Of a DNA stretch of 64,000 bases, positions 48,940-64,000 are shown piece by piece. How positions within the stretch are numbered: position 1 is the stretch's first letter; every line of letters begins with the position of its first letter. Position numbers and translations under genes: made by a program. The notes under the pieces are model-generated. The model was not told the DNA's origin. It made no database searches and saw only the letters and a list, made by a program, of their open reading frames with translations. Origin of the DNA: Minisyncoccota bacterium (GTDB lineage Bacteria; Patescibacteriota; Minisyncoccia; Minisyncoccales; JAQTPW01); assembly GCA_028712565.1 (NCBI GenBank), contig JAQTPW010000001.1, positions 77,114 to 141,113 of the forward strand. The letters run 5' to 3'.

Positions 48940-50258
48940 TTTAACCCCTTTAATTCTTCTTCTTGTTTTTGAATTTCTTCCTGTTTTTTAATTAATCTTA
49001 TTTTTAATTCGTTTTGTTTTTTCTTTTTCTTTCGGTTTATTCCCAATAAAATCCAGATGACCGACACCAAAATCAGGAAAATTATTAGAGAAATCAGCCA
49101 CCAAGGCAAAAAGAATCCCCAAAAAAATATGCCTTCTCTTGTAATATATATGCCGGCGGGAATGATTTGAATTTGCAAAGTTTCGTCTTGCCAGTTGCCC
49201 GCCGCATCAAAAGCGCGGACGACAATTAAATACTTTCCAACCGATAGCTCGGGCAACTTATAGGGGCTTGCGGTTTCCATAAAAAACGCTGTTTCTTTTT
49301 CTTGCCTGCCCGGAGTTATATCAATTATTTTTGTTTCAAAATGGTCAAAGCCAGACAAAGCATCGGTTGTAATAAATGAAATAATTGGATTTTTTGTTGT
49401 TGTTTTTTCTGCCGGGCTGGCATTTGGTAAAAACGACGCCGGCGGAGTTGCATCTATTTGCACTAAATAGTGGGAAATTCCTCCCCAAACATTGGCTTTT
49501 TTCGCTTTAATGTGGAAATAAAAGATCCCGTCCGCTAAATTTGAATAAGAAACTGAATCAATATCTCCCTCTGAATTGTTATCGGGAATCCCCTGGGGAT
49601 CATTGTCTATGCTGTAGCTGAATTCGGCAACGCCTTCGCCTTTTACCCACGCAAAAGTTGGATTGTTGTTTTTATACCATTTGTTTTGGTCAGAATGAGT
49701 TGGAGAAAAAACTTCCGGGCCTTCTGGCGGAGGTATAGTTAAGCTGTAAACCCCTCTGCCCATAGACGATAAAACGTTTGTGCCTTTTCCGTCATCCAAA
49801 AGAATTTTTGAAGTGTCTTGAAAATAAATTGTAGTATTTCCCGGAGAAACGGCGCGAAAAGTGATTGTAGAAACCAATCCAGCAGAAGTATTGATTCCGG
49901 GAGAAGGCATTCCTCCCTGAAAAGAAGCGGTCCCTTCGGAATTTGAATAGGCGGGCTGGGCAACCCAGACAGAAATAAAAGATTTTCCGGCTGTCGGACT
50001 GGCAATCTGCAGCTTCTTGGGATCAAATTTTAAATCCGCCTGAATTGCGTTAATGTTATTGCTGCCGGTATTTACAAAAATCGAAACATCAAACGTATTT
50101 CCCACATAAAATGTCCCGGAATTCGGAGAAAGATAAAAGGAAGCGCCAGTAGCATAAACATTATTCGCAGATATTAAAAAGCAAAAATTAAAAATCAAAA
50201 ATAACACCGCTAGAAAAGTGAAAAATATCTTTGATTTTATTTTAGGAAAAAACTTCAT
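48936..50258 (-). CDS. Surface protein with cohesin-like N-terminal module, TM anchor and KKKKKQNELK...coiled-coil tail (paralog 2 of 3)
   Basis: 440 aa; LKFDPKKLQIASPTAGKSFISVWVAQPAYSNSEGTASFQGGMPSPG aligns with the other two paralogs. Confidence 0.6.
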   Translation of the reverse strand: MKFFPKIKSKIFFTFLAVLFLIFNFCFLISANNVYATGASFYLSPNSGTFYVGNTFDVSIFVNTGSNNINAIQADLKFDPKKLQIASPTAGKSFISVWVAQPAYSNSEGTASFQGGMPSPGINTSAGLVSTITFRAVSPGNTTIYFQDTSKILLDDGKGTNVLSSMGRGVYSLTIPPPEGPEVFSPTHSDQNKWYKNNNPTFAWVKGEGVAEFSYSIDNDPQGIPDNNSEGDIDSVSYSNLADGIFYFHIKAKKANVWGGISHYLVQIDATPPASFLPNASPAEKTTTKNPIISFITTDALSGFDHFETKIIDITPGRQEKETAFFMETASPYKLPELSVGKYLIVVRAFDAAGNWQDETLQIQIIPAGIYITREGIFFWGFFLPWWLISLIIFLILVSVIWILLGINRKKKKKQNELKIRLIKKQEEIQKQEEELKGLK

Positions 50259-51172
50259 TTAATTATTTTTTTGCGTTCTTTTTTTCTATATACTAACCAG
50301 TAAATCGCAAATACGCCAAAGATTAGTAAAGTGATTATTAAATAGAAACTTAATCTTTTGGACGGGACTAATTCGGAAATTCTTTCGTTTCCGGCCTTAT
50401 CAATAGCTTTCACAAATATCCTGCTTTTTAGTTTTTGATCTTCCAGAAGATAGGGGCTCTGCCCTATTTTCCAATCGCCATTCCCCTCTTTTATTTCGTA
50501 ATGGTCAATTCCAGTTTGCGCATCAGTTGTAAAGAACGCGATGAAATATTTTCCCGAAAATGCGACTTTGTCTTTCCCTAATTTTATTTCAAAATTTTCT
50601 GGGGGCGCTTTATCTTCGGAAATTTTTTCTTCCCATTCATTTTTTACGGTATCGGATGTTTTTAATAAAATTGTAAAATTTGCCGCCGAAAAATTCAGTT
50701 TATCGGGAGTTCCCGAACCATCATTTAATAAAACTTGCGAATCGCTGTTGAAATTTATTTGGGCAATAGCGGAATTTACGGCGCGGAAAGCTAATGAAAC
50801 CAATTTTCCATCGCCGGAAAATCCTCCGGGCACCCCGCCAATAAATGAAATTTCACCTTCGGTATTTGAAAATGCCGGACTTTTTGGCCAAAGCGTTAAA
50901 ATCGATTCTCCGGTGCTTATATCTACAATTTGCAAATAATCTTTTGGGAAACCTATGTTAATCCCGCACGTGTTAATATTTTCGCCTTCTGCATCTAGTC
51001 TTACGTCAACAATAAAAGTATCCTCGTTTTGATAAGTCCCGCTATCGGAAGAAAAATATAATGTGGAGGCTTTCAAAAACGAAGGATTTAGAATATAGAA
51101 TCCAGCAAATAAAACAAATGAAAGCAAGGTGCAGAATCGCCAGTTTATAATTTTTAATTTTTTATTTTTCAT
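50255..51172 (-). CDS. Surface protein with cohesin-like N-terminal module and C-terminal TM anchor (paralog 1 of 3)
   Basis: 305 aa; INIGFPKDYLQIVDISTGESILTLWPKSPAFSNTEGEISFIGGVPGG. Confidence 0.6.
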   Translation of the reverse strand: MKNKKLKIINWRFCTLLSFVLFAGFYILNPSFLKASTLYFSSDSGTYQNEDTFIVDVRLDAEGENINTCGINIGFPKDYLQIVDISTGESILTLWPKSPAFSNTEGEISFIGGVPGGFSGDGKLVSLAFRAVNSAIAQINFNSDSQVLLNDGSGTPDKLNFSAANFTILLKTSDTVKNEWEEKISEDKAPPENFEIKLGKDKVAFSGKYFIAFFTTDAQTGIDHYEIKEGNGDWKIGQSPYLLEDQKLKSRIFVKAIDKAGNERISELVPSKRLSFYLIITLLIFGVFAIYWLVYRKKERKKIIK

Positions 51173-51179
51173 TTTTAAT

Positions 51180-52142
51180 TTATTTCGTCCAATAATACAT
51201 CATTATTGAGAAGTCTATTAAATCTACTATACCATCATGATTGATATCCGCACAGATGTTTGCCGGTTTTTTCTGATGCCAATAATATAAAAGTATAGAA
51301 AAATCAACTAAATTTACCTTTCCGTCAAAGTTCAAATCAGCCCCTTTGCAGACCATGGCCCCCTTTTTTACAACCAAAAAAGACATTGTTTGCGAAAACG
51401 AGCTTTGTTCGCCAGCGCCAAAAGCCGCTTTGGCTCTTGCTTCATGTCCGCTTTCTTCCAACGGAGTTGTGTCTAATTTATAAGACCATTTGCCATTTGC
51501 AGAAGTTGATGCATTTTTTACGATTTCATTTGAAGCGACAAAAATACTTACTTGGCTTGCCGGGAAGGATTGGCCATAAATATCAACTGGATTTCCTTTT
51601 TCCACTTGGGTGGGACCCAAATCAATTGTAGGTGCTAAAAAAATTCCCGAAACCGTTGTGGTTCTGTCAGCCAAAACGCCAACGCTAAAACCTATGGTTA
51701 CAGACCTTCTTCCATCAGTATCCTCGGCAAAAATTGAAAAATTATAATTTCCTGCGGCAATGCTTTGAATTGTTCTTTCAAATAAACCGGAGTTTTCTGC
51801 GCGAAAAGTGGCAGCAATTGCTCCATTCTTCATTAAAGTTAAAACAGCTTGCGGATATGCTCTTCCTTTGAAAATAACTTTAGTTTCCGGCGACACATAC
51901 GAAGTTCCGCCGCCGCCGCCTCCCCCGCCTCCGCAATTTCCGCAATCTACCGGGCAGGTTGCACAAGTTTCTCCGCCGTTGCAGGACGTATCTCCGCAAT
52001 AAGGCGAGGGAGTTGTTGTTGAGCTTTGCACAACTGCGCTTACAGTAATATCAACTTCCTGTGCAAAAACAAAAACTGGAAAAAGCATTAAAATAATTCC
52101 AAAAAGAAAAACAGTTATTTTTCTAAAACCAATCCCGTGCAT
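51180..52142 (-). CDS. Secreted Cys/Gly-rich protein ending in a tandem dockerin type-I module
   Basis: C-terminus ADLNFDGKVNLVDFSILLYYW ... ADINHDGIVDLIDFSIMMYYW gives two DxNxDGxV(N/D)xxD calcium-binding repeats; signal peptide; G9 run. Confidence 0.7.
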   Translation of the reverse strand: MHGIGFRKITVFLFGIILMLFPVFVFAQEVDITVSAVVQSSTTTPSPYCGDTSCNGGETCATCPVDCGNCGGGGGGGGGTSYVSPETKVIFKGRAYPQAVLTLMKNGAIAATFRAENSGLFERTIQSIAAGNYNFSIFAEDTDGRRSVTIGFSVGVLADRTTTVSGIFLAPTIDLGPTQVEKGNPVDIYGQSFPASQVSIFVASNEIVKNASTSANGKWSYKLDTTPLEESGHEARAKAAFGAGEQSSFSQTMSFLVVKKGAMVCKGADLNFDGKVNLVDFSILLYYWHQKKPANICADINHDGIVDLIDFSIMMYYWTK

Positions 52143-52253: not shown

Positions 52254-53195
52254 TTAATATCTCTCCCCCCGAACTAAAATTTTTATTGCCGAAATCAGCC
52301 TGTTTCTCATTAAAATCAAAATTATAATACTCGCCAATATTATTAATCCGAATTTCCAAGGGAAAGCCCAAAATGTAATCACGACCGGAACCAAAGAATT
52401 TTCAGAACCATAGGTACCTGTAATTGTTGCGGTATATTTTCCAGCCCAAAACCATTTTTTATCCAAGACAGCATCGAATTTTCGCACTGCGCGAGGCAAA
52501 ACATTTTGTTGTTTTATCGTCGCAACGCCAACTTTTTGTCCAAGCCAATTCGTAACCGTAACCATGGCCAATGGCCGCACGTGAACATTTCCTAAATTTT
52601 CGAATTTAGCATTAAAATAAACCGGCCCGTATTCAAAATAAGGAATAGTGCTGGAAACATAAAAATCTTTAACAGCCAAAAATTCTTTCATTTTGCCGGG
52701 CGTGGTCAATAAAACCAGTGTTCCAATTCTTGTAACAAGCGCGGTGCCTGTAATATTAGACCCTGCAATTGATGCGCTGGCAGCCAAGACAGTTCCATAA
52801 TGGCCGCCGGGCTCAGCATTATTAGGAATTGTAATCGAAAAACTTACCCATTGGGATTGCCCGGGCTCCAAGACAAATTCATTTGGAGTGCATTTTATCC
52901 AGTTTGCCAACGAATAGGTTTCTGTTTCGGCCGGTTCAGGAATTACATAACCTGCTTCGCCAGTGGGCGCTATATCTTCAACAGCCATTTTAATACCGAC
53001 CTGGCTATCGCTGGGGTTTGAAATTTTTACCTGATTTTCAATTACTTCACCAGGGTTTCCGGTCAATTCAAAAACTGTCGGAGATACAGCGATAGTAGTT
53101 GCAGCATTGATAACCTGCCTATTGCAAAATCCGAATAAACACACACCCATCAAACAAATGATGAGCCATCTTCTCATAATAAAAAAATATACCAC
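52254..53195 (-). CDS. Membrane-anchored surface protein, DUF916-like (paralog of the C-terminal part of 54384..55931)
   Basis: Signal peptide; SPTVFELTGNPGE...AEPGGHYGTVL...FWAFPWKFGLIILASIIILILMRNR C-terminal TM; family assignment is from memory and uncertain. Confidence 0.45.
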   Translation of the reverse strand: MVYFFIMRRWLIICLMGVCLFGFCNRQVINAATTIAVSPTVFELTGNPGEVIENQVKISNPSDSQVGIKMAVEDIAPTGEAGYVIPEPAETETYSLANWIKCTPNEFVLEPGQSQWVSFSITIPNNAEPGGHYGTVLAASASIAGSNITGTALVTRIGTLVLLTTPGKMKEFLAVKDFYVSSTIPYFEYGPVYFNAKFENLGNVHVRPLAMVTVTNWLGQKVGVATIKQQNVLPRAVRKFDAVLDKKWFWAGKYTATITGTYGSENSLVPVVITFWAFPWKFGLIILASIIILILMRNRLISAIKILVRGERY

Positions 53196-53214
53196 GAAAA
53201 TAAGTGGTTGTAAA

Positions 53215-53847
53215 CTAGGATGCTGGAAGCAGGGTAAAGTCTATTGTATCAGTGTAGGTTCCTGCTGTTTTCTGATTAGACGTAGTTGCTTTAAATCTTA
53301 CATCAATTATCTGACCAGACTCTGGCACTCCATTCGTTGCCAAGGTTTGTGCGGTTGTCGAAGCAGTTCCAACTATTTGAAGAGGTTCATTATCCCAATA
53401 ATTATATATCGGGTCAATAGTTGCGTCGCTGGAACTTGCCTGGACCCCATAGCCGTCAGTTCCGATTTCAATAGTAGTGCTTCCCGAAGCGTGACTTGCA
53501 ATAGATGTTGCATTATAGATTAATGCGGCATTATCGCTCTTAACAGTCAGACTAAATCCATCATCGTGGTTTGTTCCGCATGTTAGAGTCACGATTTGGC
53601 TGGTACCTGTTGCAAGATTTCCCGATGTATCAACTAGGGCGGGCAAAATTGCAACGCTTGTTGTAGAGCCAGTAATTGAAAGCCATTCAGAAACTGTAGC
53701 TGTAACAGTTACGGAAGTAGCGGCAGCTAAAGCATTATTTGTTGACGGCTTCATTCCGAATAAACTAACAACGCCCACGATTGCCAAAACCAACCCAATA
53801 AATAAAACTAGATTTATTTCCCAATTCTTCTTAATTCTTTCTGCCAT
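53215..53847 (-). CDS. Secreted WxL-domain-like protein
   Basis: N-terminal TM/signal; SEWLSITG near the N-terminus and C-terminal GTYTDTIDFTLLPAS resembling the Y.GTLTWTL.D.P WxL motif; 210 aa. Confidence 0.4.
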   Translation of the reverse strand: MAERIKKNWEINLVLFIGLVLAIVGVVSLFGMKPSTNNALAAATSVTVTATVSEWLSITGSTTSVAILPALVDTSGNLATGTSQIVTLTCGTNHDDGFSLTVKSDNAALIYNATSIASHASGSTTIEIGTDGYGVQASSSDATIDPIYNYWDNEPLQIVGTASTTAQTLATNGVPESGQIIDVRFKATTSNQKTAGTYTDTIDFTLLPAS

Positions 53848-54006
53848 TCTTATTAATTTTTAGATTGATTTTTAATTTCTACCCCTCGACCTGTCAGGTA
53901 GTTTTTATACTTTGTTTATTATAGCATAAAAATTCATGTCAAGCTGTGGAAAAGTCAAAAGGATATCAAATATCAAAAATAAAATATCAAATAGGCATTA
54001 ATGGCT

Positions 54007-54402
54007 TCAAGCAGAATTTCTTTTTCCTTTCAATGTAAGAATACTTGAAGCAAAGATGCGGGAAATTTCTGTAAGTTCATTTAGCAACCATTCTGTTTCC
54101 ATAGTTTTATCATAATTCAAATCTTTTAAAATTGCCAGCCAAACTTTGCTTTCATTTGCGGATTTTAAAGAATGATTAAAAAAATTCGTATAATCTTTTC
54201 GTGAACTGGCCGCTTTTCCCTCGATATAATTGGCGAGAATGCTTGTCCCGCTTCTCACTAATTGGTCTCCTAAAATTCGTGTTGTTCTATTTTCAGGTAA
54301 TTTATCAACAAAACGAATGAGTCGCAGAACAAATTGATAAAGTCTTCGTTTAAAATCTTCGCTTTTTGAAAAATCCCGTTTGATCATATTTTTCCAGCCC
54401 AA
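54007..54402 (-). CDS. Four-helix-bundle protein (TIGR02436 / intervening-sequence-type protein)
   Basis: RTTRILGDQLVRSGTSILANYIEGKAASSRKDYTNFFNHSLKSANESKVWL is the hallmark of this family; 131 aa. Confidence 0.75.
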   Translation of the reverse strand: MGWKNMIKRDFSKSEDFKRRLYQFVLRLIRFVDKLPENRTTRILGDQLVRSGTSILANYIEGKAASSRKDYTNFFNHSLKSANESKVWLAILKDLNYDKTMETEWLLNELTEISRIFASSILTLKGKRNSA

Positions 54403-55931
54403 GGTTGGTCCGCCTTGGGCGGAGATTTTTGATTTTTAAGATTTGATTTAAATATCATTCGTACTGCTGCAAAAATCCGTTTCCGCAATAAAATCAAAAT
54501 GCCCAAAGCAAATGTGATTATTAAGATTATTTTCCACGGGAAAATCCAAAAGCCTAATGTTTGATTTAATTCTATTTGGTTTTTTTCTTCTTCTAATTCC
54601 AATACTATTTTATATTTACCAAAAGAATTATTTTGGTAAATAAAATTAGAAAGGAAAGCAGGCAGCCATTTTATTTTATTCGCTGGAATCTCAGAAAAAC
54701 TGACTGGGAATTTGCGGATTTTCCCGGGCAAAATTGTTGTTTTTTTAACTTCTGACTCCCCTACTTTTTTCCCAAAGGAATTATAAACTAAAATTTTGCC
54801 GTTTAGTTTGTGATGATAAATATCATTATTTTTAATCCGCAAAATTACAGAATCCGGAGTTTTTTCAACGATGCTTACTTCAGCTGCTTGGACTCCGGGA
54901 ACCACATCAACTAAACTTGCCATAACTTTTCCCAAATTTTGCAAAGTTTTTTCTTTTGGGATTTTGAATTCAACAATCTCAACTAAATTTTTAGATTCTA
55001 AAGGTTCAAGCGAAAAAACTCTAACCGATATTAAAAATAAAACTCCGACAATAGGAACGGTTTTTGGCTGGCCTTCTTTAAAATAAAACGAAGGAAGTTG
55101 GGGTTCAAAAAGAATTACCGAATAATGGCCGCCGGGCTCGGCTTCTTTTGGGATTGAAATTTCGAAATTTATAACTTCGGTTTCGTTTACGTCTAAAATA
55201 AAATCTGCTTTTTCAAAATTAAACCATTTTCTTGAGGCAATTGAAATGTCTTGTGAAGCATCATCAAATTCCATTTCTCCAGAATCGTCTTTTGCGGTAA
55301 AATCCGTAGTTCTTATAGAAATAGGAAGCGGGACATCGCTTAGATTTTTGACATTTATTCTCCTGATAATTTTTTCTCCGGGGAAAACTTCCAATTCAAA
55401 AACTTGAGGAGAGACAGACAAACCAAGTTTAGCTACACCTTCTGCTTTTGCTGTAATGGGGAAAAATAAATTAGCCATTATATAGAAGCTGATGAACGCA
55501 GATAGCAACGCTGATTTACGCTGAAACGTTTTTTCTCTTGCCTTATCATAAATTCTTCTTTTTATTTCCAATTTCTTTGGTCCGAAGTTTATTAATAACC
55601 CCAGCTTATATTTTGAACCTTTGAGGTATAACCAAAATTGTCTCTCATCTTCTCGAGTTAAAAACGGCTTGCATTTAATTTCTAACAAAACAGCATTATT
55701 GATAATTTTATCGGGAACATATGAGGCAATTTTCTTGTCCCGAAAATAAACGTCTATTATTTTTTGACTTTCTACATTTAAGCCGAGATTTTTTAGTTCT
55801 ACATTTAAAGCCCTATCAACAACCTTTTCTTTAAATGCTCCGCCAAATTCTTTCCATACTTCAAAACACGCTCCTCTAATTAAGTAGGTTTCTTTTTCAT
55901 AAAGAAAATCTTTTACAATTTTTTTATCCAT
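54384..55931 (-). CDS. In-frame fusion ORF: N-terminal GxxExxY-family module (~140 aa) followed by a DUF916-like membrane-anchored surface protein
   Basis: N-terminus LIRGACFEVWKEFG...KYKLGLLINFGPKKLEIKRRIY (GLLINFG hallmark); remainder is paralogous to 52254..53195. The GxxExxY part lies inside a TIR-bounded element. Confidence 0.5.
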   Translation of the reverse strand: MDKKIVKDFLYEKETYLIRGACFEVWKEFGGAFKEKVVDRALNVELKNLGLNVESQKIIDVYFRDKKIASYVPDKIINNAVLLEIKCKPFLTREDERQFWLYLKGSKYKLGLLINFGPKKLEIKRRIYDKAREKTFQRKSALLSAFISFYIMANLFFPITAKAEGVAKLGLSVSPQVFELEVFPGEKIIRRINVKNLSDVPLPISIRTTDFTAKDDSGEMEFDDASQDISIASRKWFNFEKADFILDVNETEVINFEISIPKEAEPGGHYSVILFEPQLPSFYFKEGQPKTVPIVGVLFLISVRVFSLEPLESKNLVEIVEFKIPKEKTLQNLGKVMASLVDVVPGVQAAEVSIVEKTPDSVILRIKNNDIYHHKLNGKILVYNSFGKKVGESEVKKTTILPGKIRKFPVSFSEIPANKIKWLPAFLSNFIYQNNSFGKYKIVLELEEEKNQIELNQTLGFWIFPWKIILIITFALGILILLRKRIFAAVRMIFKSNLKNQKSPPKADQPWAGKI

Positions 55932-55993
55932 ATTTTTTATCAGCGTTTTTCTTATCAGCGTTTTTCAGCGTTGGTATCAGCGTTCATCAGCTT
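55486..55993. mobile_element. About 508-bp MITE-like element carrying the GxxExxY ORF, bounded by terminal inverted repeats
   Basis: aagctgatgaacgcagata (55486-55504) versus the reverse complement of tatcagcgttcatcagctt (55975-55993), 18/19 identical, with extended imperfect similarity to ~40 bp; atcagcg(tt) is iterated at the right end. Confidence 0.5.
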
Positions 55994-55999
55994 ATATTT

Positions 56000-58900
56000 T
56001 TAGTAGTTTGCCGTACATGTTAAATATATTGTTCCTTCGTAAACGTCGGCTTGCTGGGTTGAAGCCACTGATGCCTTTAATATAATTGTGTTATTTTGCC
56101 CGCCGCCAGAAGAAGTGTCGGCAACAGTATCTACTGCTTCGATTGTCGTGGCAAAACCTGACCAGCAAAGATCCGAGCCGCAAAAAGTAGTGCTGGCATA
56201 CCGGTCATAATTTGTGTCAGAGCCGGCAAGAGAAAGATCGTCCGTGTTGTATCCGAATCCGCATCGAGTGGAACTCGCATTGCAATTTTCATCCCAAGCA
56301 ACTGGACTAATATTGTTATAAGCAAATCTTTGAATATAAACGCTTTCAGTTGTTGATGATAATTTTCCTTCAGTATCCCGCATATCAGCTGTGATTGTAA
56401 ATCCGGTAGGATAAGATGTTGTGGCAAGTAATGTTATAAATGAAGTCGCGGTAAAATCATTGCCCTGGTTTAAAGTTAGATCAATTTGATCTGTGCTGAT
56501 TTCAAACTGTAAATCAGATGTCAAACCGACATACCAAGATCCCATTTCGGGCGGCGCATCCAGGCCGCTATATGGCGGGGAGCCATTCATTGAGGAGTTT
56601 GTTTGCCTGTGCCACCCAACATATATCGTATTATCTTGCGCTTCCAAGCTTGAAGTTGAAGTCAAATATTTATTACCTTGATCTAAGTAGTAATCATAGT
56701 CGCTAAATCCAAGAACCGCAACGGTTAAATTATAGTTGTATGTAGTTGTTGCCGAAGACGTTCTTTTGTATTCCCTTATTCTTATTGCGCCGGCAGAAGT
56801 TGGCTGCGGAGTTTTACCGCCGCTACTTGTTGTTGCAACTGCGCTATCTGTCGCATCTCCCCAACTTCCTGCATTGTAACTCCAAATAGTGCTAGAGCCC
56901 GAAACTTCAGAAACAGTACAGGTTGCATTTTCAATATTTACATCCGTATCATTTGCATCAACAGCGTGAATTCCTAAATACCAATCAACATATAAGGTTC
57001 CTCCAGTTACCGAAACGCCGCCGGTTTTTGCATTAAGAAAAGTAGGAGTGCCAGCTTGAACAGTGGTCGTTGAAGGGGCGGTAGAAGTGCCGTCAGAATA
57101 TAACCATTCGCCGCCCGTTCCGTTAAAATTAATTTTATAAAATGGAGAACCGCCATCTGAAATTGTATGGCCTGAATTTGTGGCAATAAATATTATTTCT
57201 CCGCTGTTGTGTGTGAAAGCGCCGGGTAAAGTTACGCTCCAATTACCGCCAACTGATAAAATTGTGGGTGCGGTAACTGCGCCATTTGTAATTGTAAAAT
57301 TATTTGATGTCGAAGCATCATCTTGGAAAGCCCAAGCCCCTCCCGAACCATTAAAGGTTAGATTATAGAAAGCAGAACCACCGCTTGTAATTTTTTGTCC
57401 GGCTGCAGTACCATCAAAGGTTACAGTAGAAGAAGCTGCGGTAAATGTGCCGGAGTTTTCCCAATTGCCAGCTACGGTTATTGCGGAGGTTGAGGCGACA
57501 AAAACTGCTGAAGCAGTAATAGTTGTGCTTCCATTTACATCAATTATTGGATTATATAAATTTGCCGAAGCCGTAAATGGATTTACAGAGTCGCCAATAA
57601 CAAATTCATTATTAACAACAATAGTCTGGCCAGTAGTAGTCCCTAAATTATAAGTTAAATTTAGATCTCCGACGCCTAATTCCAAATTATAATATGTTGT
57701 TGCAGTAATATTTGTGTCTCCCCAACTTGTATATTTGAAGGTTGATGAAGAGGCATTAAATGAACCGCTGATAGGAAAAGGCGTGTATGGCGCAGTTCCA
57801 GCACAGGCGCCGGCAATAATCCAATCTCTAAAACCTGCATCTAGCCCTTGATTTGCGGCAATTGTCAGATAATTGGATATTGTAGTGGTAGCCGTATTAA
57901 TTGCAGTAGTGGTGGCTTGGGGACCAGAACCATCTCCAAAGGTTAAATCATAAAATGTCCAATCTGTTGCCCCGCCAAACTCGCCGGTACCATCTACCAT
58001 AAATGTTCCGTCTAACCAAGTTAGCGTTCCATCTCCAGTAACATCGCCACCCAAAACATTCATGTCATAGTGGCTGATCACGACGGCTCCTTGAGTAACT
58101 GTCAAATCATTAGTTGTGGTTGCATCATCTTGGAAAGTCCACCAACCACCTCCTGAACCATTAAAATATAAGTTATAGAAAGGTGAACCGCCAGTTGTAA
58201 TTGTTCTAGGTACTGTTGCGTCAAAAGTTGTAGTTCCCGAATTTGCATCAAAATTTCCGGAGTTTGTCCAATTGCCGGCAACAGAAAGAGTGCGAAGGTT
58301 CGATGCAACCGTGGTGGCATTGGCAGACAATGTAAAATTTCCATTTATATCTAAACTCGGATCGTTAGTATCAATATTTACAATAACCTCATTTGTACCA
58401 TCTCCAATTGTTAAATTATTATTGCAGGTAAGAGATATGATGCTTAAAGTATATGTGGGAGTTCCGGCGCCAGACGGTGAAAGATTTAAATTATAATAAA
58501 GAGTAGATTTTATATTGGTATTTGCCGTTGCCGTGTAATAAAACGTCGAAGTCGCCGGGCCAAAGCCGCCATCCAAAACAAAAGGAGTTCCAGAACCCGA
58601 TAACACCCATGATTTTTCTCCGGCGTTCAAGGTTTGACTTGTAGAAACAGTTAAAACATCGGTAATAGTTGTGGTCCCAGTGCTTGTTGCAGTAATTGCA
58701 GTTGAAATACTTCCATCTCCAAAAGTTAAATCATAAAAAGTCCATTCTGATGTCCCGCCAAAATATCCTGAACCATCTACCATAAATGTTCCGCCCAACC
58801 AATTCAACGTCCCATTTCCTAACACATCTCCTCCATAAACATACATATTATATGTACTGGATGCAGTTCCTGCGGTAACGGTTAAATCATTTGTTGTGGT

Positions 58901-61900
58901 CGCATCATCTTGGAATGTCCAGACGCCATTTGAACCATTAAAGGTTAAATTATAGAACGAAGAGCCTCCGGTTTTGATTGTGGTAGTGGCTAAAGTAGAA
59001 GTAAAAGTTACAGTTGAACTTGCCGCATTAAATATTCCGTCATTGTCCCAAATGCCTGATACCGATATATCTTTTGTTGTAGAAGCAGTTATAGTTCCAT
59101 TATTATCAAAATCATGAAGGTTTATTGTGCCAGCAGTAGATGTGGAATAAAACAGAAACGTGCTTCCTGACCTCACAAAAAATTCAGAAGTATCAGAAGC
59201 AGTCAAAGTGCCGGCAGTTGAAGATGCTAAAAATAGAATATCTGCATCTTGTCCAGAATCATAATAATCCAAATCTGAAATATTAAGAGGCGTTGAATCT
59301 TCATGCCGGACAATAATCCTGTTTTGATACAAATCTAAATCAGAAATATTATAATCTGTTGAACTGGCGCGAGTAATTGCATTTGCTTTTTCAGTTTCGC
59401 CATCTAGATATACGGTTAATACGTCACCTACTGCGCCAACCAATACTTCACTTATATTATAACTTCCATCTGCATCCTCACAGGTTCCTGAATAAATTGT
59501 TTCTCCCCCATTTACTTTTAAGTTAACTGTTAAATTATTTCCTGAACAATCATAGGCTCCCGTTCCTTCTTCAGTATATATTACCCCAGAAACAGTAATT
59601 CCGGCGGAGGGAGGGGCAGGAAAAGCATCATATTGTATGCCCCAATAATCAGTTTTTAAATTTTCCGCGCCACCGTCCTGATAAACTCTCCAGAATGTCC
59701 AGAACTCTGCAGTTGTCGTGCCGGCTGAGTCGTTAAATTTATATTCTGGAAAATAATAATCGGAAAGATTAGCGGTGACGGTTCCGTCAATTGTGCAGTC
59801 AGTATTTGCAGTGCAGGCGCTTGAGCTGGCGACAGTTTCCCACAAAGTTGTAGAACTTGAATTTCCAAAACGGAAAATTTGAAGATAAATTTTATTGGAA
59901 GAAGCTCCAACGTTCGATTGCCCGATCCAACGGCTGTAAAGAGAATTTGTATTTGCTGCGTGGTTATCGGTAAAAACAAAAATTGGCGATGATGTGGCAG
60001 TGCTTCCACCCGCGGAAGTTATGCTTGAGGAAGCCGAGCTGTCAGTGGTGGTAGAAATATTTGTATAGTCAGAATTATCAAACCAATAAGTTAGGCCGTC
60101 TTCCGCCGCCGGATTAGCTTCCAAAAACATAGCGCTCGTTGTTGCCGGAGACGCCCACTGGGTTCTTGTTAATTTTATTTGGTTATCGGTTTTTAAATAA
60201 TTGTTAAAATAAGAAATTGCGGTTTGCGGGAGACCTAAACCTTTTGCAATCCTAAGATAAGCATTAGTGTAATCGTAATAAGCAATTATGGGATTGCCGT
60301 CAGCGCCTATAGCAATTGGACAATTTGAATTATTATTTTCATCTGACAGCGAATCGATGGTACCGCAAGAAGCTACGGTACAGGTAGCGTTGGTGCAATT
60401 ACAAATTCTCAGATTATTAATAGAATCACTGCAACTAGAAATTACAGGATTATTATCGTAACCTATTGCGATTGAATTGTAATGACTGCTGCTGATTACA
60501 GAACATGTAGCAGCTGTACAAGTTTGCGTTTTACATTTGCAGACCCCGCCCTGAAAAGAAATAACGGGAAGGCCTTCTGCGCTTATTGCCATTGATGTTT
60601 CAGTATCTCCGCCAGTATAAACCGAACCGCAAATAGCAGAAGTACAGCTTGTGTTTGCGCATTTGCAAACCTTAATTGAATTCTCAAAATCAATATTAGC
60701 TGAATAAGAAATCATTGGAATGCCATTAGTTCCAATCTTAATTGAGCTTCCAGAACCTGCGCTATCGTTATTTGCATCTTTGACTGTATTATCAAGCGTC
60801 GTACAGGTTTTTGTTCCACTGCAAGACGTGTCACTGCAAGAACAAACCGCTAAAGTTGTAGTATTGGTGGGGAAATCGTTTTGATTGCCATCTCGAAAAG
60901 AAATAATCGGATTGCCATCCTGTCTGATAGCAATTGATGTATCATCTGCTTGGCCCCTTGTAGTGGAAATGCTACTACAGGTTTCATCGCCCCCTGTACA
61001 GGCCGGGTCGTTGCATTTGCATACATATAATGTATACGTTCTCACAAAGGATATTACAGGAAATCCGTCGCTGCCAATTGCAATAGATGGATCCCAGTCA
61101 GTACCCGTATCAACTACGCTGCAAAGTTCATCTCCTCCCGTGCAACCCGGGTCATTGCATTTGCAAACTATAAGATCTCCATTAGCATCATTCGTTGAAG
61201 CAATTACAGGTAAGCCATCAAAACCAATAGCAATTGCTGGATACTGTCCATTATATGTTTGAGCTGTGGTTGTGTTGACAGTATTGCAATCAAAAGAACT
61301 CGTAGCGGAACAGCTTGCCGCTAAAGTTAAAACCGCGTCTTTTGAATATCTTTTTGTGTTTGAAGTTTCAGGAACAACAGTTAAGGTTGGATATTGCGAA
61401 TAGCCATCCAAGGCAGTGCCATCGCTGGAAACTAATCTTAATCTATATGTTGTAGAAGCTGTGGCTTCGGAAGTGTCAATCGCAAAAGCAAGTTCTGTGC
61501 ATTTACTGACAGAAAGTGTAATACTGGACGACGTGGCTGTACCTTCATACCACTCGCCATCTTGCCAAGACGTATTTTCAGTACACGCTCCAGTTGAGCT
61601 GGAAGTCAAAGCAGTTGTGCTGGTTCCGGATAATCCCCAAGATGGCTGAAGTTCGTAATTGGGCAGCATTTTGGCAACCCGAAGGTCTTGATTGGTAGAA
61701 TCAAAGTACGAAACGATTGGCCAACCATCCGGTGAAATAGCAATTGAAGTATTTAATCCAACTTCATTAGATGAATTATCTACAACGTACAAAGTATTGC
61801 CAAAAGTGCAAGATGAATTTCCGCACTTTGCAATTTTAAGAACACCCTTTCCTTCGCTTGTGCTGGCATTATAAGAAATTATCGGCAAGCCATCTGTTCC

Positions 61901-64000
61901 AATGGCAAGCGAATTATAAGCACCAATAGTATATGTCGACTCTATGGTCGTCGTAGTCCAATTACTGGAAGAAGTGCAATTTTGAGTTGTGCATTTGGCA
62001 AAAAGAAGATCCATTGCGGCTCCAGCCAAATTATAACTAATTGCCGGGTAGCCATCCGCGCCAATCGCAAGAGAATTGTAACCTCCAGCAGAACCCGCAG
62101 TCTGAACCGTAGCAGTATCCCAATTGCTAGACGAAGTGCAATTATTGGTATCGCATCTGGCAAAAAGAAGATCGTAATTTGTCGTATCATAATAACTAAT
62201 AACCGGATATCCGTCGTTTCCAACCGCAATGGAGTTAGATGAGCCGACGTCCCCGACGGCATGAACCGTAGTGGTGTCCCACGCGCTAGACGAGGTGCAA
62301 TTTCCAGTGTCGCATTTTGCAAAAATAAGATCGTAACTACCAGGAACAGTTGTATCAACGTAGCTGATTACGGGGTAACCGTCGTTTCCAATAGCTATTG
62401 AAGAATTCCAACCTACGCTGCCTGCTGTTTGCACAGTAGTGGTAGTCCAGCTATCAGAAGAAGTGCAATTTTGAGTTGTGCATTTGGCAAAGAGGAGGTC
62501 GGCAGAGCCGCCATCATAATAACTAATAACCGGATATCCGTCGTTTCCAACCGCAATGGAGTTAGATGAGCCAATGGTTCCAGCGGTTGCAACTGTAGTA
62601 GTCGTCCAGTCACTGGCTTGAGTGCAATTCCCGCCGGTACATCGCGCAAATAAAAGATCGTCATTTGTATCGTCAAAATAACTGATCATTGGATATCCGT
62701 CTTTCCCAATTGCAATGGAGGTGCCTGCGCCAACATTGCCGCCAGAGGCCACAGTCGTTGCATTCCATTCTTTTAGATTAGCACCCGAATTTAAACTTGG
62801 CGGGCCGCCAAAAGCCAAATCCGTCCAGTCATTATTTCCATGATCGTATTGGACTTTATAGGTTTTAGTTCCTGCAAGGTCTCCGGTATTATCAACTTGA
62901 AACCGAGCGATTAACCTTTCGCCTTTTTTTACAGCAAAACTAGTGTTTGGCGCAGTTGATGTTGAGTCAGAACTAATAGTAGTCCCGTCATCGTTTTGGA
63001 AAACGTACGCGCGTTGGGTAATTGTTGCAACTGGAATATGAACGGTTACCTGCGGATAAATTGTATATGCCATTCCGGTCGTGGTGCCGTTGTTAGTCAA
63101 TCGGAAGCAAAAAGTTTTTTGGCTTGTTATAGTAGAAGTTGGAACTAACGCGTATTCAAACTCGGTATATTTTAAATTTCCTAATGTAAAAGGCGATGTC
63201 GTGCTGTTTGGAATGGCAAGAGCTGACCCCGTTCCGGTTGCAAATGTTCTGCCATCTGAAGTAAGTAAAGATGTTTGCACCGTAGAACGGCTAGCATATT
63301 TTGTGGAAGTCGCCAATTCAAAATACTGTGCAGTTGCAGTTTTTGGAACTTCAGTATATGTTTCAGTGGTACAATCGCCTGTTTTTTCCGCATATTCAAT
63401 CTTATAAATATTCTCAGTTCCAGTCCCATTGCTGGTATTGGCAATTTCTATTCTTAAGCGCAGGGTAGTCCCAACCAAAGTTGTAGTAGAATTATCTTCT
63501 TCTGCGGCAAATCCGCCGGAGGTATCCAAGGCCGCCGAATCATCTCTCCATCTGTAATGTTTCAGATCTAGAATTACAGGCGTGTATGAAACAACAATTA
63601 CGCCTTGAGCTCCGGAGCCGCCAGTACTGCCGCCACCGCCGCCTCCACCGTAACCTCCTCCAAAACCACCAACATCACTAGTGGGGTCCCCGGCGCCTCC
63701 GCCTCCACCACCTGAACCAGCTATTTTTGAGTCAGACGTTTGTGTCCATTCTGTCCCATAACCACCAGTGCCTCCGCCATAGTTATCAACACCTCCTCCT
63801 CCACCACCTCCATCGCTTCCCGGATTTCCAATACCCGTACTTGTGGCAGCCCCGCCCGAACCTGCCCAGTTGTTGCCCCCGCGCGCCCCCCAAGGAGTAT
63901 CTACTGTTCCTGATATACCATCGCTGCCTCCACCGCCACCACCGCCACCACCACCTGAACCATATGTACCGCTAGTATGGCCAGCTCCTCCTGCCGCTCC
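56000..64000 (-). CDS. Giant repeat-rich cell-surface protein (>2,660 aa; 5' end beyond the window) with a Gly-rich N-terminal region and ~45-aa tandem blade-like repeats
   Basis: Frame open with no stop from 56003 to 64000. Repeats of SIA(I/V)G.DGYP.ISY...DL.FAKC...NCT; upstream of the track's TTG lies GGGGGGGGGSDG...GGGYGGGGGGG; Ser/Thr-rich. Confidence 0.8.
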   Translation of the reverse strand, partial: GAAGGAGHTSGTYGSGGGGGGGGGGSDGISGTVDTPWGARGGNNWAGSGGAATSTGIGNPGSDGGGGGGGVDNYGGGTGGYGTEWTQTSDSKIAGSGGGGGGAGDPTSDVGGFGGGYGGGGGGGSTGGSGAQGVIVVSYTPVILDLKHYRWRDDSAALDTSGGFAAEEDNSTTTLVGTTLRLRIEIANTSNGTGTENIYKIEYAEKTGDCTTETYTEVPKTATAQYFELATSTKYASRSTVQTSLLTSDGRTFATGTGSALAIPNSTTSPFTLGNLKYTEFEYALVPTSTITSQKTFCFRLTNNGTTTGMAYTIYPQVTVHIPVATITQRAYVFQNDDGTTISSDSTSTAPNTSFAVKKGERLIARFQVDNTGDLAGTKTYKVQYDHGNNDWTDLAFGGPPSLNSGANLKEWNATTVASGGNVGAGTSIAIGKDGYPMISYFDDTNDDLLFARCTGGNCTQASDWTTTTVATAGTIGSSNSIAVGNDGYPVISYYDGGSADLLFAKCTTQNCTSSDSWTTTTVQTAGSVGWNSSIAIGNDGYPVISYVDTTVPGSYDLIFAKCDTGNCTSSSAWDTTTVHAVGDVGSSNSIAVGNDGYPVISYYDTTNYDLLFARCDTNNCTSSSNWDTATVQTAGSAGGYNSLAIGADGYPAISYNLAGAAMDLLFAKCTTQNCTSSSNWTTTTIESTYTIGAYNSLAIGTDGLPIISYNASTSEGKGVLKIAKCGNSSCTFGNTLYVVDNSSNEVGLNTSIAISPDGWPIVSYFDSTNQDLRVAKMLPNYELQPSWGLSGTSTTALTSSSTGACTENTSWQDGEWYEGTATSSSITLSVSKCTELAFAIDTSEATASTTYRLRLVSSDGTALDGYSQYPTLTVVPETSNTKRYSKDAVLTLAASCSATSSFDCNTVNTTTAQTYNGQYPAIAIGFDGLPVIASTNDANGDLIVCKCNDPGCTGGDELCSVVDTGTDWDPSIAIGSDGFPVISFVRTYTLYVCKCNDPACTGGDETCSSISTTRGQADDTSIAIRQDGNPIISFRDGNQNDFPTNTTTLAVCSCSDTSCSGTKTCTTLDNTVKDANNDSAGSGSSIKIGTNGIPMISYSANIDFENSIKVCKCANTSCTSAICGSVYTGGDTETSMAISAEGLPVISFQGGVCKCKTQTCTAATCSVISSSHYNSIAIGYDNNPVISSCSDSINNLRICNCTNATCTVASCGTIDSLSDENNNSNCPIAIGADGNPIIAYYDYTNAYLRIAKGLGLPQTAISYFNNYLKTDNQIKLTRTQWASPATTSAMFLEANPAAEDGLTYWFDNSDYTNISTTTDSSASSSITSAGGSTATSSPIFVFTDNHAANTNSLYSRWIGQSNVGASSNKIYLQIFRFGNSSSTTLWETVASSSACTANTDCTIDGTVTANLSDYYFPEYKFNDSAGTTTAEFWTFWRVYQDGGAENLKTDYWGIQYDAFPAPPSAGITVSGVIYTEEGTGAYDCSGNNLTVNLKVNGGETIYSGTCEDADGSYNISEVLVGAVGDVLTVYLDGETEKANAITRASSTDYNISDLDLYQNRIIVRHEDSTPLNISDLDYYDSGQDADILFLASSTAGTLTASDTSEFFVRSGSTFLFYSTSTAGTINLHDFDNNGTITASTTKDISVSGIWDNDGIFNAASSTVTFTSTLATTTIKTGGSSFYNLTFNGSNGVWTFQDDATTTNDLTVTAGTASSTYNMYVYGGDVLGNGTLNWLGGTFMVDGSGYFGGTSEWTFYDLTFGDGSISTAITATSTGTTTITDVLTVSTSQTLNAGEKSWVLSGSGTPFVLDGGFGPATSTFYYTATANTNIKSTLYYNLNLSPSGAGTPTYTLSIISLTCNNNLTIGDGTNEVIVNIDTNDPSLDINGNFTLSANATTVASNLRTLSVAGNWTNSGNFDANSGTTTFDATVPRTITTGGSPFYNLYFNGSGGGWWTFQDDATTTNDLTVTQGAVVISHYDMNVLGGDVTGDGTLTWLDGTFMVDGTGEFGGATDWTFYDLTFGDGSGPQATTTAINTATTTISNYLTIAANQGLDAGFRDWIIAGACAGTAPYTPFPISGSFNASSSTFKYTSWGDTNITATTYYNLELGVGDLNLTYNLGTTTGQTIVVNNEFVIGDSVNPFTASANLYNPIIDVNGSTTITASAVFVASTSAITVAGNWENSGTFTAASSTVTFDGTAAGQKITSGGSAFYNLTFNGSGGAWAFQDDASTSNNFTITNGAVTAPTILSVGGNWSVTLPGAFTHNSGEIIFIATNSGHTISDGGSPFYKINFNGTGGEWLYSDGTSTAPSTTTVQAGTPTFLNAKTGGVSVTGGTLYVDWYLGIHAVDANDTDVNIENATCTVSEVSGSSTIWSYNAGSWGDATDSAVATTSSGGKTPQPTSAGAIRIREYKRTSSATTTYNYNLTVAVLGFSDYDYYLDQGNKYLTSTSSLEAQDNTIYVGWHRQTNSSMNGSPPYSGLDAPPEMGSWYVGLTSDLQFEISTDQIDLTLNQGNDFTATSFITLLATTSYPTGFTITADMRDTEGKLSSTTESVYIQRFAYNNISPVAWDENCNASSTRCGFGYNTDDLSLAGSDTNYDRYASTTFCGSDLCWSGFATTIEAVDTVADTSSGGGQNNTIILKASVASTQQADVYEGTIYLTCTANY

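Follow-up and report, generated by a model that had tools for sequence, protein, structure and literature searches.

Intervening sequences (IVS) of 23S rRNA genes, located in helix 25 or 45 and found in Leptospira, Coxiella, Brucella and Xanthomonas, are units of ~0.4-0.8 kb with stem-forming terminal repeats and a sense ORF of the PF05635 family; the two small insertions described here resemble them in layout, and one of the two also in the family of its ORF. That IVS could be mobile was proposed long ago; to our knowledge, neither a function of the rRNA IVS ORFs nor a mechanism of their mobility has become known in 30 years. Palindromic selfish DNA, the Rickettsia palindromic elements (RPE) reportedly described by Ogata and colleagues in 2000, is said to sit in frame inside genes, and among nucleases of the PD-(D/E)XK fold, I-Ssp6803I is an intron-encoded homing endonuclease. 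In the Coxiella IVS, three to four tandem heptamers GACAGAT stand just before the ORF start, with an inverted-repeat stem (PMC4990558), and palindromic repeats and MITEs have been found in frame inside genes (PMC10969869). Our search of the literature on GxxExxY, PF13366, PF05635, IVS proteins and CPR palindromic or in-frame elements found no description of the cassettes presented below.

The stretch of DNA analysed (the window, 64,000 nucleotides), which comes from an ultra-small bacterium of the CPR, carries a giant surface-protein gene followed by a DUF916/WxLIP-like surface-protein gene, and at each end of the latter lies a small gene between inverted repeats (Table 1). These features had been noted in a first-pass annotation and they are real, all at the positions given there and on the minus strand. 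The DUF916-like gene originally started within the final codons of the giant gene (…CTANY*); in relatives, the giant gene has the same C-terminal motif and the same overlap with the next gene. The orthologous loci L003, L004/L005 and L006 present the order giant gene, DUF916-like gene, 210-aa gene and DUF916 paralogue, with an uninterrupted surface-protein gene and neither a GxxExxY gene nor a four-helix-bundle (4HB) gene, and three kinds of relatives have empty sites for both elements. Since relatives share this gene order without either small gene, the nuclease and 4HB segments are, on comparison of the sequences, insertions relative to the orthologous loci, which agrees with the first-pass view of them as miniature insertions. 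In insertion-free relatives, moreover, the promoter-like block of the 210-aa gene stands immediately 3' of the DUF916 stop codon.

Outside the window, the listing and the alignment of surface-protein homologues comprised 237 sequences, all of them unfused (305-406 aa) and with a signal peptide of their own, which is conserved together with the C-terminal membrane helix. Orthologues begin with MYGKLL or MHGKLL, the DNA start in relatives being ATGTACGGTAAACTATTAG… (MYGKLL…). An alignment of 18 sequences, the window copy among them, contains 72 invariant columns, all kept in the window copy. Against the PF06030 (DUF916) profile, the fusion reaches 20.1 bits, below the 27.3 cut-off, and the paralogue 29.0 bits, above it.

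Table 1. Features of the surface-protein locus, in positions of the window.
Feature	Positions	Strand	Remarks
Giant surface-protein gene	56000..63529	-	at least 2509 aa; stop TAA 56002-56000
Relic of ancestral DUF916-like start	55992..56018	-	ATG TAC GGC AAA CTA CTA AAA ATA TAA = MYGKLLKI*
GxxExxY element	55482..55997	-	516 bp; termini ATATAAGCTGAT… and …ATCAGCTTCTAT
5' arm of nuclease element	55932..55997	-	inverted-repeat part 55955-55997; upstream of nuclease ATG
GxxExxY PD-(D/E)XK nuclease coding part	55530..55931	-	aa 1-134
3' arm of nuclease element	55482..55529	-	TCAGCGT heptamers; inverted-repeat part 55482-55524; translated TFQRKSALLSAFISFY
Fusion ORF	54384..55931	-	515 aa; single gene according to gene callers and NCBI
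Predicted junction peptide of nuclease/host fusion (example)			SALLSAFISFYIMANLFFPITAK
DUF916/WxLIP-like surface-protein gene, host-derived part	54448..55481	-	from homologue alignment
4HB (IVS-protein) element	53965..54447	-	about 483 bp; between host-gene end and promoter block of next gene
5' arm of 4HB element	54424..54447	-	ATCAAA heptamers; host-frame reading is part of tail NLKNQKS…
G+C-rich hairpin	54397..54422	-	GCCCAAGG-N8-CCTTGGGC; between 5' arm and 4HB ATG
Four-helix-bundle protein gene	54007..54387	-	126 aa; ATG overlaps fusion ORF stop as ATGA
3' arm of 4HB element	53965..53988	-	TTTGAT heptamers in gene orientation
Heptamer array of 4HB-element arms			ATATCAAA
Conserved promoter-like block of 210-aa gene	53918..53955	-	TTTTCCACAG-CTTGACA-N17-TATAAT
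DUF916 paralogue of surface protein	52254-53195		same operon

The terminal inverted repeats described around the GxxExxY module are the arms of its element: 43 nt long, 86% complementary and built of ACGCTGA heptamers, they constitute the longest inverted repeat of the window. The 5' arm holds four heptamers at a spacing of 10-15 nt (mean about 12). The core pattern of this repeat occurs in the window only at the element (0 expected), and all four occurrences of ATCAGCGTT in the window lie within the arms (0.37 expected). When the RNA of the element is folded, the arms pair as a long terminal stem (z -5.2). A stable RNA stem of ~40 bp could also be a substrate of RNase III, whose cut would leave the nuclease and host ORFs on different RNA pieces.

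The module had been placed just after the stop codon of the giant gene and, by implication, upstream of the surface gene. Its vicinity to that stop stands; the element lies, nevertheless, inside the 5' end of the surface gene rather than merely upstream of it, where it splits the signal-peptide codons after MYGKLLK(I). Its 3' boundary was set by comparison with locus L007 (…CAGCTTCTAT|). Upstream of it the ancestral start codon survives, as read from the aligned sequences, in a relic that the element cuts off, the TAA of the relic being inside the 5' end of the element. The relic start and the downstream host ORF are in a common frame, 540 nt apart, and removal of the element in silico joins AAA|ATA ATG GCT and restores MYGKLLKIMANLFFPITAKA|E.

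Nuclease and DUF916-like sequences had been said to read in frame, and they do form one ORF without intervening stop. It encodes, in this order, the nuclease, an arm peptide, the remainder of the signal peptide (IMANLFFPITAKA|E), the DUF916-like ectodomain, the C-terminal membrane helix and a 17-aa tail. Residues 13-126 match GxxExxY (PF13366/TIGR04256) with E 3e-27 and 4e-26 (profile scores of 91.7 bits against a cut-off of 35 and 95.6 bits against one of 22), and the catalytic residues of the predicted nuclease, E35, P73-D74 and E84-I-K86, are kept. An AF2 model (pLDDT 85) gave Cas4 and lambda-exonuclease-like proteins as top Foldseek matches, Hjc/Hje-type resolvases as weaker ones, and weak matches to RNA-splicing endonucleases. 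Free-standing nuclease homologues end within the 3' arm (…QRKSA(LLSA)); in the window, TTC replaces the stop codon of …LLSA. Because the nuclease stop is missing in the 3' arm, the arm-encoded RKSALLSAFISFY, which would be the front of a signal peptide, is joined to the host protein. The NCBI name of this 515-aa surface protein is just "GxxExxY protein".

The same fusion was found outside the window. Complete fused ORFs, intact and of 469-543 aa, exist in seven other contigs or protein clusters (L038, L039, L040, L041, L067, P0361 and P0367), all in diverged loci or clusters. In five of these seven, identity to the window is 62-88% for the nuclease and only 34-52% for the host part (82-88% and 46-52%, respectively, for L038-L041), a contrast that slower evolution of the nuclease than of the surface protein could by itself explain. 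In a host tree (neighbour-joining, without support values), fused loci turn up in no fewer than four places, with unfused orthologues in between. The fused relatives carry the repeats, and none devoid of them was seen; L040 has lost the 5' arm and retains the coding 3' arm in frame. In L038, L039 and L067, reading of the sequence finds no usable internal start giving an adequate signal peptide. Altogether, comparison of these genes indicates that the fusion of nuclease and surface protein is recurrent in diverged genomes and no one-off accident.

At the other end of the surface gene, the 4HB gene matches TIGR02436/PF05635 (E 5e-27; 94.2 bits against a cut-off of 24 and 73.7 bits against 33.8), and its protein matches PDB 2RLD (E 1e-14) and 2GSC; no relatives of it were found in viral contigs. 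As previously noted, it lies between clusters of ATCAAA and TTTGAT. The two arms match at 20 of 24 positions, weak evidence if taken alone because the sequence is AT-rich. The motif is, however, enriched (16 matches versus 5.4 expected) and coincides with the insertion boundaries, and the heptamers are conserved in homologous elements (L029, L037 and translated N-terminal read-throughs). The element replaced the stop codon of the host, which gained about 17 residues from its 5' end; when the flanks are joined without it, they read …ATG ATA TTT AAA TCC TTT TGA (…MIFKSF*). The G+C-rich hairpin (-18.8 kcal/mol, z -4.2) encodes PPKADQPWA of the host tail and is absent from homologous 4HB elements. 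The first-pass annotation had the 4HB gene overlapping several tail codons; with the likelier ATG at 54387, the overlap shrinks to ATGA. Its more general idea, that both ends of the surface gene were remodelled, is borne out by the nuclease and arm peptide at the N-terminus and the residues added at the C-terminus.

Each element is present in one copy in the 64-kb window, where a search with the terminal-repeat pattern (three mismatches) and tblastn with both small proteins found none further. Searched for elsewhere, the arms recur: ATCAAA/TTTGAT surrounds close relatives of the 4HB gene, and the nuclease unit is a member of a large family whose ends read TA|GAAGC…GCTTC|TA; around close relatives of the nuclease gene, the same termini and heptamers were found in at least 27 genomic contexts. 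At least two forward heptamers upstream and at least two reverse heptamers downstream are present in 35 of 53 loci; in total, forward and reverse heptamers number 135:14 upstream and 13:157 downstream, the background being about 0.1 per flank. These units are usually co-oriented with the upstream gene and located at its stop codon: in 23 of 29 contexts, the stop of a co-oriented upstream ORF is -29..+18 nt away from the first heptamer. Other nuclease subfamilies have different heptamers (ACGCCAA, CACGAAT) in an unchanged layout. Furthermore, solo palindromes of ~80-100 nt without an ORF occur in five MAGs labelled as several phyla, where a strict probe finds two to four copies in four of the five other MAGs and one in the fifth. 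Arm complementarity within one element shows only a modest excess over that between elements (20.1 versus 14.4), from which we derive no claim of covariation.

All copies read have TA at both ends. In the window, the frame at the nuclease insertion is restored by a 3-bp ATA duplication or by none, and a TA duplication fails; several models of target-site duplication were worked through manually for the window and for L050, and no single one could be established. The ORFs of the elements are the nuclease and the four-helix-bundle protein only, with no recognised transposase (DDE, HUH, serine or tyrosine recombinase) among them.

The 5' arm reads …NAD/NAE/DAD… and the 3' arm …R(K/Q/E)SA…, and since the arms are stop-free in this frame, the unit can be read as part of a host protein. 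Fusions of close nuclease relatives with prepilins, directly ahead of the G|FTLxE site, make up at least eight clusters. N_methyl matches were obtained for L049 (E 2e-4), L050 (E 1e-4) and P0394 (E 2.5e-6), the last with the G|FTLxE motif besides; direct reading of the sequences finds the motif in P0385, P0396, P0402, P0435 and P0494 and the variant G|FSLIE in P0455. Clean in-frame inserts exist in EF4/LepA (162 aa, between residues 71 and 73 of the solved structure) and in RecG (177 aa, between residues 512 and 519 of 1GM5), and the GxxExxY domain is also found in GatB, RtcB, DHFR, AsnB, LeuRS and GT2/GT4 enzymes. In the DNA of a ribF fusion, the arm is read in frame.

Taken together, these data probably reflect hairpin-armed insertions of ~0.5 kb, of which the nuclease unit would be translated with its host, removed with the leader and spread by way of its own heptamers. 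Each small gene lies in the loop of such a unit, between arms of three to four heptamers roughly one helical turn apart. The 515-aa protein would be the translated product: its nuclease domain would remain in the cytoplasm, the arm peptide RKSALLSAFISFY and the host segment IMANLFFPIT would together span the membrane, and signal peptidase may cleave after AKA, which would free the normal surface protein and so make the insertion nearly harmless. With about 22 residues, the hydrophobic stretch formed by the two is rather long for a signal peptide that is cleaved, and it might stay in place as an anchor. The same logic of leader removal might apply to the many fusions that directly precede a prepilin-peptidase site. 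The nuclease presumably binds its own heptamers, and spread may consist of nuclease-triggered copying into preferred sites or insertion at them; we know of no case of strand transfer by a PD-(D/E)XK protein of 130 aa. The 4HB unit would be the same kind of element with other cargo and other heptamers, its type being the one represented by the IVS of 23S rRNA.

Other accounts have to be weighed against this one. The insertion might have simply broken the surface gene, leaving a young pseudogene with a chance read-through whose function is covered by the DUF916 paralogue. The ancestral start is indeed cut off, such a paralogue does exist in the operon and the exact 515-aa protein is present on two contigs only; but we find this quite unlikely in view of the seven other intact fusions in diverged loci or clusters, of the retention of every orthologue-invariant column in the window copy, and of L040, which has lost its 5' arm and yet keeps the arm-encoded coding part in frame. 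Removal at the RNA level also has to be considered, in which RNase III or the nuclease would cut the stem, as in rRNA IVS, and the host message would be used in pieces or religated. RNase III excises the Coxiella IVS at such a stem (PMC4990558), and both the stem predicted here and the weak fold-search matches to RNA-splicing endonucleases would fit. Such removal would, however, not need the stop-free frames through both arms that many independent host genes show; in rRNA, the pieces left by RNase III are not religated; and L038, L039 and L067 would after the cut be without a start codon for an adequate signal peptide. We therefore hold this route to be unlikely.

The hypothesis that both small genes are ordinary accessory genes, e.g., defence or toxin-antitoxin-like ones, with repeats acting as autoregulatory sites or terminators rather than as mobile ends, draws on the operator-like appearance of heptamer arrays ahead of a start codon, on the absence of a transposase and on the lack of a second copy in the window. 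It seems very improbable to us, given that the outer ends of the arms are the insertion boundaries, that the units occur in at least 27 contexts with ORF-less palindromes of the same arms dispersed in other genomes, and that EF4 and RecG contain clean in-frame inserts. Least credible, to the point of deserving hardly any weight, is that the 4HB gene encodes Avd, the accessory protein of diversity-generating retroelements, and that such a retroelement acts on the surface proteins nearby. Homology does connect Avd with PF05635 (PMC10053308), and surface proteins are typical targets of these retroelements, but the gene lies in a 483-bp unit with heptamer arms of its own, missing from the orthologous loci. 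The retroelement reading was rejected, the 64-kb window containing no pair of template and variable repeats. No reverse transcriptase was noticed, the Pfam scan covering the window ORFs from position 48,900 onward.

Returning to hairpin-armed insertions that are translated with their hosts, we tentatively advance a broader proposal, rather less secure: GxxExxY cassettes may form a distinct class of mobile elements, neither intron nor intein, that leader peptidases excise, with the 4HB IVS elements as sisters. Their arms would be translatable linkers, allowing a cassette to persist in frame within protein-coding genes, and a cassette located in a signal peptide or prepilin leader would be removed by the leader peptidase of the cell, i.e., a protein-level excision without splicing. 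Were this true, the sister 4HB elements, with their common arm design, would offer a first handle on the movement of IVS. What makes the mobility of IVS testable is that sites are available both with and without an element, that the termini are defined, that the heptamers of the arms change together with the protein encoded, and that the cargo has kept its predicted nuclease active site intact. Moreover, a folded nuclease in frame within essential enzymes (RecG, EF4, GatB, RtcB, DHFR) and before cleavable leaders would, if confirmed, represent a new route by which selfish DNA persists in tightly packed CPR genomes.

Compared with the 23S rRNA IVS, the elements of the window are distinctive in that they lie in a protein-coding operon and alter protein ends, and in that one of them encodes a PD-(D/E)XK nuclease instead of a four-helix-bundle protein. 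The window contains no rRNA or tRNA genes and gave no Rfam match at gathering score or E ≤ 1, and rRNA context is likewise absent from 20 related loci. With Avd of the diversity-generating retroelements, the likeness is that of the four-helix-bundle fold family PF05635, whereas template and variable repeats are lacking in the window. REP/REPIN sequences with RAYT similarly combine a small gene amid inverted palindromic repeats with dispersed solo copies of the repeats; here, in contrast, a PD-(D/E)XK nuclease or a four-helix bundle takes the place of the HUH tyrosine transposase, arrays of heptamers form the repeats, and the units are inserted either at gene ends, in the orientation of the gene, or in frame. 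The RPE share with these elements the stop-free palindromic insertion in ORFs, the gain of a peptide by the host and the occurrence of ORF-less copies. They differ in that the arms described here are heptamer arrays that enclose a whole nuclease gene, adding about 160-180 residues with a folded domain, and in that the hosts are CPR and other uncultured bacteria.

As in homing endonuclease genes and inteins, finally, there is a nuclease ORF, diverged hosts have the insertion at one and the same position of a conserved gene, the positions belong to conserved motifs of essential genes (e.g., RecG, EF4, GatB) and the element is better conserved than the host flank (in a tree without support values). 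Unlike introns and inteins, the cassettes have no intron RNA fold (no Rfam match), and the fused proteins no Hint domain. The insert apparently stays in the host protein, or goes only where a leader peptidase site follows.

Every gene between 48.9 and 63.5 kb of the window lies on the minus strand, and a DUF916-like surface-protein gene in this series carries a small gene at either end, a GxxExxY nuclease and a four-helix-bundle (4HB) protein. Both are insertions, as the first-pass annotation had proposed: in three orthologous loci (L003, L004/L005 and L006) the gene order is kept and both small genes are absent. In relatives, the giant gene and the DUF916 gene overlap, the start of the latter (ATGTACGGTAAACTATTAG, read as MYGKLL…) coinciding with the end of the former. 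The ancestral start is kept in the window at 56018 (ATG TAC GGC AAA CTA CTA AAA ATA TAA); the relic ORF beginning there enters the nuclease element directly and then stops, and it shares its frame with the host ORF 540 nt downstream. Deletion of the element in silico yields MYGKLLKIMANLFFPITAKA^E, with a normal signal peptide. At the 3′ end, the DUF916 stop codon of the relatives is immediately followed by a conserved block (…GAGTTTTCCACAG…TTGACA…TATAAT), which in the window starts directly past the outer TTTGAT arm, so that ~483 bp (54447 to 53965) are additional here; joining their flanks restores …MIFKSF and a stop, resembling orthologue ends. The surface-protein part has 237 homologues, and all those listed are unfused, with 305-406 aa, their own Met and a signal peptide, and stop 2-10 residues past the C-terminal membrane helix, where the window protein has ~17 extra residues. 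A Candidatus Pacebacteria MAG at NCBI encodes an identical 515-aa protein, annotated as "GxxExxY protein".

Coordinates of the two inserted elements and of neighbouring features
Feature	Position	Strand	Remark
Giant surface-protein gene	63529..56000	-	First in gene order
Diverged internal repeats of giant gene	57100-62700		Several families, e.g. five ~160-nt units at 61868-62659; repeats ~780-810 nt apart at 57116-59068
Nuclease element	55482-55997	-	516 bp
Nuclease-element arms	55955-55997; 55482-55524		43 nt, 86% complementary
515-aa ORF	55931..54384	-	Second, after giant gene
4HB element	53965-54447	-	~483 bp
4HB arms (ATCAAA/TTTGAT clusters)	53965-53988; 54424-54447		20/24 positions match
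G+C-rich hairpin	54397-54422		Between 5′ arm and ATG of 4HB element
126-aa ORF	54387..54007	-	Third; ATG overlaps 515-aa ORF stop as ATGA
TTGACA/TATAAT block	53918-53955		5′ of 210-aa gene
210-aa gene, DUF916-like paralogue, then dockerin and cohesin proteins		-	Downstream of 126-aa ORF, in that order
Surface operon	48936-52142; 52254-53847	-	Cohesin-, dockerin- and Big-domain proteins, second DUF916-like gene, 210-aa membrane protein
Imperfect palindrome	46972-47037		37 nt, 78% complementary, arms overlapping; unrelated to either element

The surface operon keeps its gene order in L003-L006 and resembles a CPR-bacterial module for assembly at the cell surface.

In the 515-aa ORF, PF13366/TIGR04256 (GxxExxY, PD-(D/E)XK) matches residues 13-126, and WxLIP_PGBD/DUF916 matches the remainder weakly. 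The nuclease residues E35, P73-D74 and E84-x-K86 are conserved; its structural model, which is confident (pLDDT 85), is similar to Cas4 and lambda-exonuclease-like nucleases, with weaker similarity to Hjc/Hje-type resolvases (TM 0.4-0.5). The arms that bracket it form the longest inverted repeat in the window, found there once, with four ACGCTGA heptamers upstream and their complements downstream. The 3′ boundary is fixed by comparing the end of a related locus, L007 (…TCAGCGTAAATCAGCGTTGCTATCAGCGTAAATCAGCTTCTAT^), with that of the window (…TCAGCGTAAATCAGCGTTGCTATCTGCGTTCATCAGCTTCTAT^), whose nuclease ORF is missing the usual TAA.

This element belongs to a large and dispersed family whose arms have stop-free frames. 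Free-standing nuclease homologues (up to 81% identical) end in …AREK(F/Y)QRKSA(LLSA), which corresponds to translated TCAGCGT heptamers, and some gene calls begin upstream with …KNAENI… or …NNADNM…, i.e., translated ACGCTGA heptamers. Both flanks were available for 53 related metagenome loci, of which 35 show two or more forward heptamers upstream together with two or more reverse ones downstream; forward:reverse totals are 135:14 upstream and 13:157 downstream, over a background of ~0.1 per flank. The termini are TA^GAAGC…GCTTC^TA throughout, and more distant subfamilies carry different heptamers (ACGCCAA and CACGAAT) in an unchanged layout. At least 27 distinct flank contexts occur. In 23/29 contexts a co-oriented upstream ORF ends within -29 to +18 nt of the first heptamer, its stop often being TGA within the first CGCTGA or TAG within the terminal TAGAAGC; the elements are thus passengers located where genes end and transcribed along with them. 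Moreover, a strict arm probe found 11 ORF-less palindromes of ~80-100 nt, several at contig ends, in five MAGs labelled Clostridia, Saccharibacteria, Elusimicrobia, Parcubacteria and Patescibacteria.

Solo palindromes of reversed arm order also exist (L021 3848-3940, L023 7152-7217, also L019, L025 and L027), the TCAGCGT-type array preceding the ACGCTGA-type one, opposite to the nuclease-gene flanks; candidate readings are ends that abut, the junction of a circle or another form of the element. In L093 and L094 a nuclease element lies immediately upstream of an apparent tRNA gene (…GGCCGGTAACTCAGCGGTAGAGTAC…), and one "heptamer" belongs to the tRNA D-arm. A tandem pair of GxxExxY domains occupies a single 263-aa ORF in protein cluster P0464.

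Fusion to the DUF916-like gene is recurrent. Five loci (L038-L041 and L067) carry the element at the window's position, between a giant gene ending …TAQY and the DUF916-like gene, and in all of them the nuclease reading frame stays open across …R(K/R)SALLSAFI(G/S)(F/L)Y… and an ensuing hydrophobic stretch, followed by A-x-(A/Q)^Q, in complete proteins of 469-543 aa. Two further fused clusters, P0361 and P0367, came from a search of 1.84 billion representative proteins. Between the window and L038-L041, identity is 82-88% in the nuclease and 46-52% in the host. A neighbour-joining tree of the host part, built without support values, places fused loci in at least four positions among unfused orthologues, the window adjoining unfused P0009 near unfused P0012; the pattern suggests that the element either inserted repeatedly at a single site or was precisely lost many times.

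In-frame fusions recur in other hosts too, especially with cleavable N-terminal leaders. In L049 and L050 the nuclease ORF continues, with no start codon between the two parts, into type IV (pseudo)pilins, the junction lying right ahead of G^FTL(M/V)EL; both pilin parts match N_methyl, and L050 also GspH. The gene upstream is T2SS-F in L049, and the upstream ORF end in L050 resembles prepilin peptidase by eye, Pfam giving no match there. Nuclease-prepilin fusions also make up at least seven more representative clusters. In dozens of other clusters the domain is internal to the host protein, flanked by translated heptamers (…TQxDAD… and …R(K/Q/E)SA…), the hosts being RecG, EF4/LepA, GatB, RtcB, DHFR, asparagine synthase, LeuRS and GT2/GT4 glycosyltransferases. 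The EF4 insert (P0452) has 162 aa, its flanks aligning to residues 7-71 and 73-604 of solved EF4; that of RecG (P0433) has 177 aa, its flanks aligning to 1GM5 up to residue 512 and from 519. In a ribF fusion, the arm DNA TATAAGCAGATTGACGCAGAT… is read in frame.

P0452 has a second, short in-frame insert (residues ~345-370, …TSQTNADVKTRTYADNAVVPAEKNQNS…) that solved EF4 structures lack; it resembles an arm palindrome without ORF that is translated. P0442, a fragment of leucyl-tRNA synthetase, contains a NUDIX domain as well as a GxxExxY insert within the enzyme.

The 126-aa ORF of the second element matches TIGR02436/PF05635, and its protein matches PDB 2RLD and 2GSC. In homologous elements (L029-L037) the ATG is preceded by ATATCAAA arrays and the stop is followed by TTTGAT arrays, and longer gene calls translate the upstream arrays as …SNIKYQK….

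The hairpin of the 4HB element (GCCCAAGG-N8-CCTTGGGC; -18.8 kcal/mol, z -4.2), amid a genome of 38% G+C (the value of the window as well), is single-copy in the window, is absent from homologous elements L029 and L037, and is translated within the extra tail of the host protein. All orthologous loci (L003-L006) share a conserved block ahead of the 210-aa gene, consisting of (T)TTTCCACAG and then TTGACA-N17-TATAAT. In L029 and L040 this block immediately follows a 4HB element. It may represent a promoter that has a motif upstream, or a site that the 4HB element prefers to target. In L040 (~2145-2290) a truncated 4HB gene, its last ~45 codons (…SKFWFALLRDTG…IRTLKGK and stop), follows the fused DUF916-like gene at the site of the window's intact element, and the host ORF reads into it.

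How such a locus would work can be proposed from these arrangements. The 515-aa fusion would be translated, the arm peptide supplying the charged and hydrophobic front of the signal, and the mature protein would be freed by signal peptidase or, in the pilin cases, by prepilin peptidase. The encoded proteins may recognise their own heptamers, and spread may depend on the nuclease. A rival account takes the fusion locus for a pseudogene. In the fused locus L040 the 5′ arm is lost, the ancestral start (MYCSILI…) reads directly into the nuclease and the coding 3′ arm is retained. The sequences of L038, L039 and L067 offer no internal start codon giving an adequate signal peptide.

Alternatively, the elements might be removed at the RNA level. 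In RNA folding, the arms of the nuclease element pair into a long terminal stem (z -5.2), and the ends of the 4HB element pair weakly (z -1.9). Less probably, the small genes could be ordinary regulated genes, or the 4HB protein a retroelement accessory protein.

Such cassettes were not found described in our literature searches. The Coxiella intervening sequence shares the plan of the window elements: its ORF is preceded by three or four GACAGAT heptamers, and it has a stem of inverted repeats (PMC4990558). In anatomy the 4HB unit corresponds to an rRNA intervening sequence, though it does not lie in rRNA. The nuclease unit, which has no intron fold, intein domain or known transposase, combines three known traits: arms and a loop arranged as in intervening sequences, in-frame residence like that of Rickettsia palindromic elements, and recurrence at a site as in homing elements.
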